The notes below the pieces were generated by a model, which saw nothing but the letters and a program-made list of their open reading frames with translations, was not told the DNA's origin and searched no databases. A stretch of 64,000 nt of DNA, from the NCBI RefSeq assembly GCF_050920415.1, contig NZ_CP169309.1; one strand, 5' to 3'. This stretch comes from Escherichia coli (GTDB lineage Bacteria; Pseudomonadota; Gammaproteobacteria; Enterobacterales; Enterobacteriaceae). Made by a program: the position numbers and the translations under genes. Positions 6,574 through 7,992 of the stretch are shown here, piece after piece (within the stretch, counting starts at the first letter, position 1; each line of letters opens with the position of its first letter).

Positions 6574-7992
6574 ATGCAGGAAAATATATCAGTAACCGAT
6601 TCATACAGCACCGGGAATGCCGCACAGGCAATGCTGGAGCAACTGCTGCAAATTTATGATGTCAAAACGCTGGTGGCGCAGCTTAATGGTGTGGGTGAGA
6701 ATCACTGGAGCGCGGCAATTTTAAAACGTGCGCTGGCGAATGACTCAGCATGGCACCGTTTAAGTGAGAAAGAGTTCGCCCATCTGCAAACGTTGTTACC
6801 CATTCCACCGGCACATCATCCGCATTATGCGTTTCGCTTTATCGATCTATTTGCCGGGATTGGTGGTATTCGTCGCGGTTTTGAATCGATTGGTGGGCAG
6901 TGCGTGTTTACCAGCGAATGGAACAAACATGCGGTACGCACTTATAAAGCCAACTATTATTGCGACCCGGCGGTGCATCACTTTAATGAAGATATTCGCG
7001 ACATCACTCTCAGCCACAAAGAGGGTATAGGTGATGACGCGGCGGCGGAACATATCCGTCAACATATTCCTGAGCACGATGTTTTACTGGCCGGTTTTCC
7101 TTGTCAGCCGTTTTCTCTGGCTGGCGTATCGAAAAAGAACTCACTCGGACGAGCGCACGGTTTTGCCTGTGATACCCAGGGCACGCTGTTCTTCGATGTG
7201 GTGCGTATTATCGACGCGCGTCGCCCGGCGATTTTTGTGCTCGAAAACGTCAAAAACCTGAAAAGCCACGACCAGGGGAAAACGTTCCGTATCATCATGC
7301 AGACGTTGGACGAACTGGGCTATGACGTGGCAGATGCAGAAGATAATGGCCCGGACGATCCGAAAATCATTGACGGTAAACATTTCCTTCCGCAGCACCG
7401 TGAACGCATCGTGCTGGTGGGTTTTCGTCGCGACCTGAATCTGAAAGCCGATTTTACCCTGCGTGAGATCAGCGAATGTTTCCCTGCACAGCGAGTGACA
7501 CTGGCGCAGTTGCTGGACCCGATGGTTGAGGCGAAATATATCCTGACGCCGGTGCTGTGGAAGTACCTCTATCGTTATGCGAAAAAACATCAGGCGCGCG
7601 GTAACGGCTTCGGTTATGGAATGGTTTATCCGAACAATCCGCAAAGCGTCACGCGTACGCTTTCTGCTCGTTATTACAAAGATGGCGCGGAAATTTTAAT
7701 TGATCGCGGCTGGGATATAGCCACGGGTGAGAAAGACTTTGACGATCCGCAGAACCAGCAACACCGCCCACGTCGGTTAACGCCTCGTGAATGTGCGCGC
7801 TTAATGGGCTTTGAAGCACCAGGAGAAGCGAAATTTCGCATTCCGGTTTCGGACACTCAGGCCTATCGCCAGTTCGGTAACTCGGTGGTCGTGCCGGTCT
7901 TTGCCGCGGTGGCAAAACTGCTTGAACCAAAAATCAAACAGGCAGTGGCGTTGCGTCAGCAAGAAGCAAAACATGGCCGACGTTCACGATAA
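6574..7992 (+). CDS. dcm: DNA-cytosine C5 methyltransferase Dcm
   Basis: 472 aa; C5-MTase motifs [14 protein letters not shown] and ENV present. Confidence 0.9.

Follow-up and report, generated by a model that had tools for sequence, protein, structure and literature searches.

The out-of-frame dcm-vsr overlap of Escherichia coli in a rare allele with an altered Shine-Dalgarno core

Introduction

Dcm methylates the inner cytosine of CCWGG, and Vsr nicks beside the T of the T:G mismatches left by deamination of the 5-methylcytosine that Dcm makes. The dcm-vsr pair thereby links the maker of a mutational hazard to the enzyme that repairs the resulting mismatches. In E. coli the second gene opens before the first has closed, which raises the question of how a start codon buried in another reading frame comes to be used: where does vsr truly begin, which ribosomes translate it, and does the overlap matter? 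For K-12 Vsr, T:G mismatch-specific nicking in the CTWGG context is credited to Hennecke et al. 1991 where that work is cited in PMC11741368.

We took up this question in a window of 64,000 nucleotides from E. coli (RefSeq assembly GCF_050920415.1, contig NZ_CP169309.1), the whole stretch of DNA analyzed here. The dcm-vsr overlap is already a textbook E. coli arrangement and is nothing new to biology. What follows concerns the evidence for it, its spread among Enterobacteriaceae, and a rare sequence variant at the vsr start.

Results

Identity of the two genes and geometry of their junction

The product of the upstream gene matched the Pfam families PF00145 (DNA_methylase, 260.9 bits) and PF18284 (DNA_meth_N), as well as the NCBIfam model NF007772 (PRK10458 'DNA cytosine methylase'), for which the score was 944.6 bits and the cut-off 710. 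Its translation contains FxGxG (motif I), PCQ (motif IV) and ENV (motif VI; LENVKN) and is 97% identical to K-12 Dcm, with 12 amino acid differences that include Q466K just 5' of the overlap. The downstream product matched PF03852 over residues 2-74 (133.1 bits, cut-off 27) and TIGR00632 over residues 1-118 (180.4 bits, cut-off 97.85), the latter model being aligned from residue 1. It matched PDB 1cw0 with E = 6e-104 and shares 152/156 residues (97%) with K-12 Vsr, from which it differs by V54L, T63A, E106A and T131S. Residues D51, H64, C66, H69, H71, C73 and C117, which we take from the Vsr structure papers to be catalytic or zinc-binding, are all present in the translation. Residue 63 (window 8159-8161), Ala here and Thr in K-12, adjoins H64, presumably a catalytic residue. 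Judged by their translations, both proteins carry all the defining features of the Dcm and Vsr families that can be looked for in a sequence. The names dcm and vsr given in a preliminary description of this DNA are borne out by these Pfam and NCBIfam matches and by agreement with the annotated K-12 pair.

When 5426 complete E. coli genomes were searched by megablast with window positions 6500-8500, 5367 proved to carry the locus. The gene order is drpB-yedJ-dcm-vsr, followed by convergent yedA and then yedI, and the neighbors in K-12 MG1655 are the same. One genome, NZ_CP169399, is 100% identical over 6500-8500, and RefSeq places its dcm and vsr at positions equivalent to those in Table 1. In K-12 MG1655, dcm (b1961) occupies 2030899-2032317 and vsr (b1960) 2030448-2030918, so that the RefSeq genes share 20 nt (2030899-2030918); by alignment, the 20 overlapping bases are identical in the K-12 copy. 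This is the longest same-strand overlap in the 50-kb K-12 region compared, where the others measure 1, 4, 8 and 14 nt.

The vsr start lies inside the dcm ORF on the same strand, which is the structural hallmark of a coupled gene pair. The vsr frame is +1 relative to that of dcm (7973 - 6574 = 3 x 466 + 1). On the dcm side, the overlap comprises the last two nucleotides of codon H467, the codons G468, R469, R470, S471 and R472, and the stop; on the vsr side, it comprises M1, A2, D3, V4, H5, D6 and two nucleotides of K7. The dcm stop is thereby found 15-17 nt 3' of the vsr ATG. The preliminary description had placed the vsr start within the last dcm codons, with a 20-nt overlap in different frames, and had called the arrangement established in E. 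coli. The first of these statements is exact to the base in the ORFs and in the RefSeq annotation of both NZ_CP169399 and K-12, the second follows from the ORF arithmetic, and the third agrees with the annotated b1961/b1960 pair and its identical overlap bases.

Table 1. Coordinates of features at the dcm-vsr junction and in a window segment with no counterpart in the compared K-12 region
Feature	Position in window	Strand	Basis or remark
dcm	6574..7992	+	ATG to TAA ORF, 472 aa; RefSeq CDS at matching coordinates in NZ_CP169399
vsr	7973..8443	+	ATG to TGA ORF, 156 aa; RefSeq CDS at matching coordinates in NZ_CP169399
Dual-coding dcm/vsr overlap, 20 nt	7973..7992	+	ORF frames, sequence
dcm stop TAA	7990..7992	+	Embedded in vsr codons D6-K7 (GAT AAG)
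vsr Shine-Dalgarno position	7963..7966	+	GAAG here, GAGG in K-12; alignment with K-12
Met14 ATG, internal vsr codon	8012..8014	+	Rejected alternative start, without usable Shine-Dalgarno sequence
PEBP-family protein	27142-27579		In segment 26330-32456
AraC-type regulator	27589-28386		In segment 26330-32456
Short IS605-type TnpB-like ORF	29762-30580		In segment 26330-32456
Group II intron reverse transcriptase/maturase	30997-32367		In segment 26330-32456

Several observations concern the surroundings. The genes vsr (+ strand, ending at 8443) and yedA (- strand, ending at 8432) converge with a 12-nt 3' overlap (window 8432-8443) that is also annotated in K-12, and most other genera have a short gap there instead. 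On the minus strand, a terminator-like hairpin, GCGCGTGGCAATTGCGCGC then ATATTTTTG, lies at 8014-8032 within the first part of vsr and ∼400 nt beyond the yedA stop; the plus strand forms just a 5-bp GC stem. The region holds 11 terminator-like matches compared with 5.4 +/- 2.9 in shuffled sequences, and this hairpin may therefore be a chance occurrence. Identity to K-12 MG1655 is 95.3% over 3597-26329, 90.7% over 32457-39835 and 97.8% over 40668-50854, a greater divergence than is usual among E. coli core genes, and it is 86% in the fliC region (40376-40662). The ∼6 kb at 26330-32456 have no counterpart in the compared K-12 region.

Conservation of the overlap among Enterobacteriaceae

We compared 80 species-level Enterobacteriaceae loci carrying a Vsr relative at 76-97% amino acid identity, the best 80 of 255 tblastn-confirmed loci. 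Of these best 80 of 255, 56 have a vsr start that lies within dcm; the overlap measures exactly 20 nt in 48 of them, 17 nt in four, 14 nt in two and 35 nt in another two. The other loci of the same best 80 comprise three in which dcm ends 12-35 nt 5' of vsr (12 nt in L082, a Cedecea), 12 with the order yedJ-vsr-yedA and no dcm at the locus, four from Buttiauxella with dcm and vsr 0.9-1.0 kb apart, and five whose arrangement is unclear or truncated. Wherever dcm directly abuts vsr, the overlap is nearly always kept (56/59 species, again among the best 80 of 255). The overlap is thus real and not a product of chance, since both the locus and the overlap itself are conserved.

How long the overlap is depends on where the dcm frame first meets a stop. 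In the usual case this is the TAA within the conserved Vsr codons D6-K7 (GAT AAR), which gives 20 nt. When vsr codons 5-6 read CAT AAT, the TAA falls one codon earlier and the overlap is 17 nt, or 14 nt at the CAT AAT loci where vsr also starts one codon later, at a GTG. When D6 is encoded by GAC, the next TAA is found at S11-K12 and the overlap extends to 35 nt. The Dcm tail encoded here is poorly conserved (HGRRSR, HGGRTR, DGGRSR, NGGRSQ and NDGCSQ all occur) and the Vsr N-terminus is nearly invariant across loci, which implies that the vsr frame dominates the constraint within the overlap. At the third positions of vsr codons 2-6, overlapped loci have an entropy of 0.68 bit versus 1.28 bit at loci without the overlap, a reduction in which dual coding is visible.

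Loci with other arrangements showed features of their own. In the 12 species without dcm at the locus, mostly Kosakonia and Phytobacter (L035, L037, L040, L048, L051, L070, L071, L074, L077, L079, L080 and L083; vsr at 2501 in each), vsr directly follows yedJ after a gap of 11-19 nt, has its own strong Shine-Dalgarno (SD) sequence, and is followed 3' by yedA in 11/12. Their median anti-SD duplex energy is -8.45 kcal/mol. The 0.9-1.0 kb spacing of the Buttiauxella loci (L045, L049, L050 and L056) spans about 1500-2500 in each, and that of L049 holds a 172-aa opposite-strand ORF (1685..2203) with no Pfam match. In Escherichia sp. MOD1-EC7003 (L007, 1896-2520), dcm has suffered a large internal deletion, such that only nucleotides 1-110 and 929 onward of the window dcm align; vsr is intact there and the 20-nt overlap is kept.

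A rare allele at the vsr Shine-Dalgarno position

In K-12, the SD core GAGG lies at -10 to -7 from the vsr ATG with a 6-nt spacer. In the window, a G to A change at 7965 (-8 from the ATG), synonymous in dcm codon E464, turns this into GAAG, and a C to A change at 7969, the source of Dcm Q466K, makes the spacer A-rich. The predicted anti-SD duplex accordingly drops to -0.8 kcal/mol versus -5.8 in K-12. This value is weaker than the window background mean of -2.3 and weaker than that of every overlap locus compared, the weakest of which reaches -2.8.

Of the 5367 E. coli genomes, 37 share the exact 41-nt haplotype of the window and 3474 carry that of K-12. GAGG is retained in three further E. 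coli haplotypes that we sampled, of which one has a Vsr A2V change that is synonymous in dcm. By megablast with the 2-kb query, 15 genomes were at least 99% identical and 5085 fell in the 90-95% band. Over dcm-vsr, the window shares 94.3% of its nucleotides with K-12 and 88-90% with other Escherichia species.

Across species, the median anti-SD energy was -5.8 kcal/mol for loci with the dcm overlap (n=57 as then classified) versus about -8 for those without (n=22). The difference gave p=0.002 in a Mann-Whitney test that ignores phylogeny; shared ancestry confounds the comparison, as the no-dcm class, for instance, is mostly Kosakonia and Phytobacter. Weaker SD sequences at overlapped vsr genes are what would be expected if those genes lean on coupling. 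Many Citrobacter loci likewise have almost no SD, at about -3 kcal/mol, with vsr intact, so that there is precedent for initiation at this junction with little help from an SD. In K-12 and many other species the SD is respectable (-5.8 to -8.3 kcal/mol), which makes some independent initiation of vsr plausible there. With GAAG in place of GAGG, initiation of vsr in the allele studied here should either depend more on coupling than it does in K-12 or be weaker.

Expression of vsr

We consider it very probable that dcm and vsr form a chromosomal operon and that the ribosomes making Vsr are those that have just completed dcm on the same mRNA. K-12 vsr expression is reportedly dependent on dcm through translational coupling, and the pair is said to have a single promoter 5' of dcm, with translation of vsr depending on that of dcm. 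In our full-text literature searches, no paper paired the phrase 'translationally coupled' with both genes. Co-transcription of vsr with dcm is described in PMC12907096. According to a passage of PMC4444293 that cites Dar & Bhagwat 1993, the dcm-6 allele, with its nonsense mutation at codon 45, eliminates vsr activity as well; transcriptional polarity is another conceivable cause of this defect. We infer from these data, or take from the literature, both co-transcription and the dependence of vsr translation on dcm translation.

Consensus scanning of the plus strand, which is weak evidence, found no sigma-70-like promoter inside dcm and no terminator between dcm and vsr. The RNA of segment 7935-8040, which contains the vsr start, has no unusual degree of structure (z = -0.03), and the mean unpaired probability across the ribosome footprint at the start is 0.46-0.59, or ∼0.5 in both the K-12 and the window allele. 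These values lend no support to a masking mRNA structure at the vsr start, nor to a need for dcm ribosomes to melt a hairpin. We infer that termination followed by re-initiation 17 nt upstream is a more economical model than hairpin melting. The preliminary description called the arrangement translationally coupled, which is an experimental claim made for K-12; the junction sequence as such is compatible with translational coupling and cannot prove it.

The rival that survives best holds that the overlap is a neutral by-product of the adjacency of dcm and vsr, that it has no regulatory role, and that vsr is initiated de novo. Much of what we observed could be read in this way: the overlap ends wherever the first stop in the dcm frame happens to fall, the Dcm tail that it encodes is poorly conserved, a reasonable SD is kept at many overlapped loci, and the vsr start shows no special RNA structure. 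Three species even have a 12-35 nt gap between the genes, and 12 have vsr without dcm at the locus. Against this, the overlap is retained in 56/59 species in which the genes abut, and the SD sequences are weaker at overlapped loci than elsewhere. Furthermore, this allele and many Citrobacter loci are essentially devoid of an SD (-0.8 to -3.0 kcal/mol) with vsr still intact, and the genetics of K-12 are reported to make vsr dependent on dcm, insofar as the dcm-6 statement in PMC4444293 conveys. We thus regard a neutral overlap as improbable and favor translation of vsr by ribosomes arriving from dcm.

The start codon of vsr

The vsr frame offers TTG 7811, TTG 7901, TTG 7922, ATG 7973, ATG 8012, TTG 8063 and TTG 8108 as candidate starts. 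The 24 loci in which dcm does not overlap vsr (from the best 80 of 255) allow these to be told apart, because such species impose no dcm constraint on the region. In these 24 loci, the DNA 5' of the vsr ATG is unconserved, with ∼1.7 bit of entropy at all three positions, and conservation starts at the ATG homologous to 7973. From there on, the entropies at codon positions 1/2/3 are 0.18/0.33/1.28 bit for codons 2-6 and 0.11/0.13/1.04 bit for codons 7-13, and the N-terminal peptide of 14 letters is identical in 16/24. Residues 1-13 are hence Vsr coding sequence, and ATG 7973 is the true start of vsr.

The preliminary description had proposed that an alternative downstream vsr start with an independent ribosome-binding site would refute its reading. 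We looked for such a start and found none. Under this rival, vsr would be translated independently from Met14 and the dcm overlap would be an annotation artefact. ATG 8012 is indeed the sole downstream ATG in frame, it is conserved in 80/80 loci (best 80 of 255), and the annotated ATG 7973 has almost no SD in this allele (-0.8 kcal/mol). Yet the anti-SD duplex for ATG 8012 amounts to -2.9 kcal/mol and is formed by an AAGG ∼18 nt upstream, beyond usable SD distance, and in the 80 loci Met14 is conserved as an internal residue. Loci that lack dcm still conserve codons 1-13, with wobble at the third position; this conservation starts exactly at the first ATG, and both the Pfam and the TIGRFAM models include residues 1-13. 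In addition, the Vsr chain crystallized with DNA (PDB 1cw0) comprises residues 2-156, starting at A2, and removal of the first 14 residues of Vsr is reported to reduce both its endonuclease and its repair activity and to abolish its stimulation by MutL (PMC2715241). A start at Met14 was accordingly rejected and is, in our estimate, very unlikely.

Least credible of all is a start further upstream, at TTG 7901 or TTG 7922, or a Dcm-Vsr fusion through a +1 frameshift near the dcm end: 5' of ATG 7973 the vsr frame contains no stop for 56 codons and the two TTG codons have SD-like matches (-5.8 and -5.1 kcal/mol, respectively), but in the 48 species with a 20-nt overlap the entropy 5' of the ATG (0.69/1.31/0.78 bit at vsr-frame positions 1-3) peaks at the dcm third-codon position, such that only the dcm frame is coding-constrained there, the open stretch ranges from 0 to 64 codons across 56 overlap species and is ≤28 in 24/56, and the non-overlap species have no conservation 5' of the ATG. 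Since the open stretch is not conserved and the variation follows the dcm frame, a conserved N-terminal extension or a frameshift fusion is excluded, and TTG 7811 was discarded along with the other two.

Discussion

Taken together, the geometry of the junction, the conservation of the overlap and the position of the vsr start point to the following route for Vsr synthesis. The vsr gene has no intergenic region before it, its ATG at 7973 lying 20 nt inside the dcm 3' end. Ribosomes would read the dcm frame on to the TAA formed by the conserved Vsr D6-K7 codons, terminate at 7990-7992, and re-initiate 17 nt upstream at the vsr ATG. Alternatively, the passage of dcm ribosomes may keep the vsr start region accessible. 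In either case, Vsr synthesis would be tied to Dcm synthesis at a low ratio.

What the G to A change at 7965 may do in the rare lineage (37/5367 genomes) is more speculative. By removing the SD core, it might leave Vsr wholly dependent on dcm ribosomes or measurably lower, with more C to T hot-spot mutation at CCWGG than in K-12-type strains; we hold this to be possible, but doubtful. If true, loss of the SD in the GAAG lineage would alter Vsr dosage and hence 5-methylcytosine mutability, which would be of modest interest. Long out-of-frame gene overlaps in E. coli are commonly illustrated by this pair, and the present comparison could be of modest use for teaching or annotation through the D6-K7 length rule, the relation of SD strength to overlap, the occurrence of vsr without dcm at the locus, and the allele that lacks the SD core.

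With respect to other systems, the pairing of a 5-methylcytosine methylase with a T:G mismatch nuclease is shared with Neisseria V.NgoAXIII/XIV, whose vsr genes are linked to C5-methyltransferase genes, and with Caulobacter VsrA/ScmA (PMC12907096, PMC6116569). Unlike the window genes, Caulobacter vsrA does not adjoin its methylase gene (PMC12907096). The closest likeness is to K-12 MG1655, which has the same genes, neighborhood, protein lengths (472/156 aa) and 20-nt +1-frame overlap with identical bases; the differences lie in the 94.3% nucleotide identity over dcm-vsr, in 12 Dcm and 4 Vsr amino acids, and in GAAG versus GAGG. Classical translationally coupled pairs of E. coli, such as trpE/trpD and trpB/trpA, have ATGA or TGATG junctions with overlaps of typically 1 or 4 nt, and ribosomes that terminate on the first gene probably go on to initiate the second. 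The dcm-vsr pair resembles them in that the second gene of one mRNA begins inside the first ORF or at its very end. It differs from them in that the dcm stop lies 17 nt 3' of the vsr start, and re-initiation would therefore require the ribosome to move backward.
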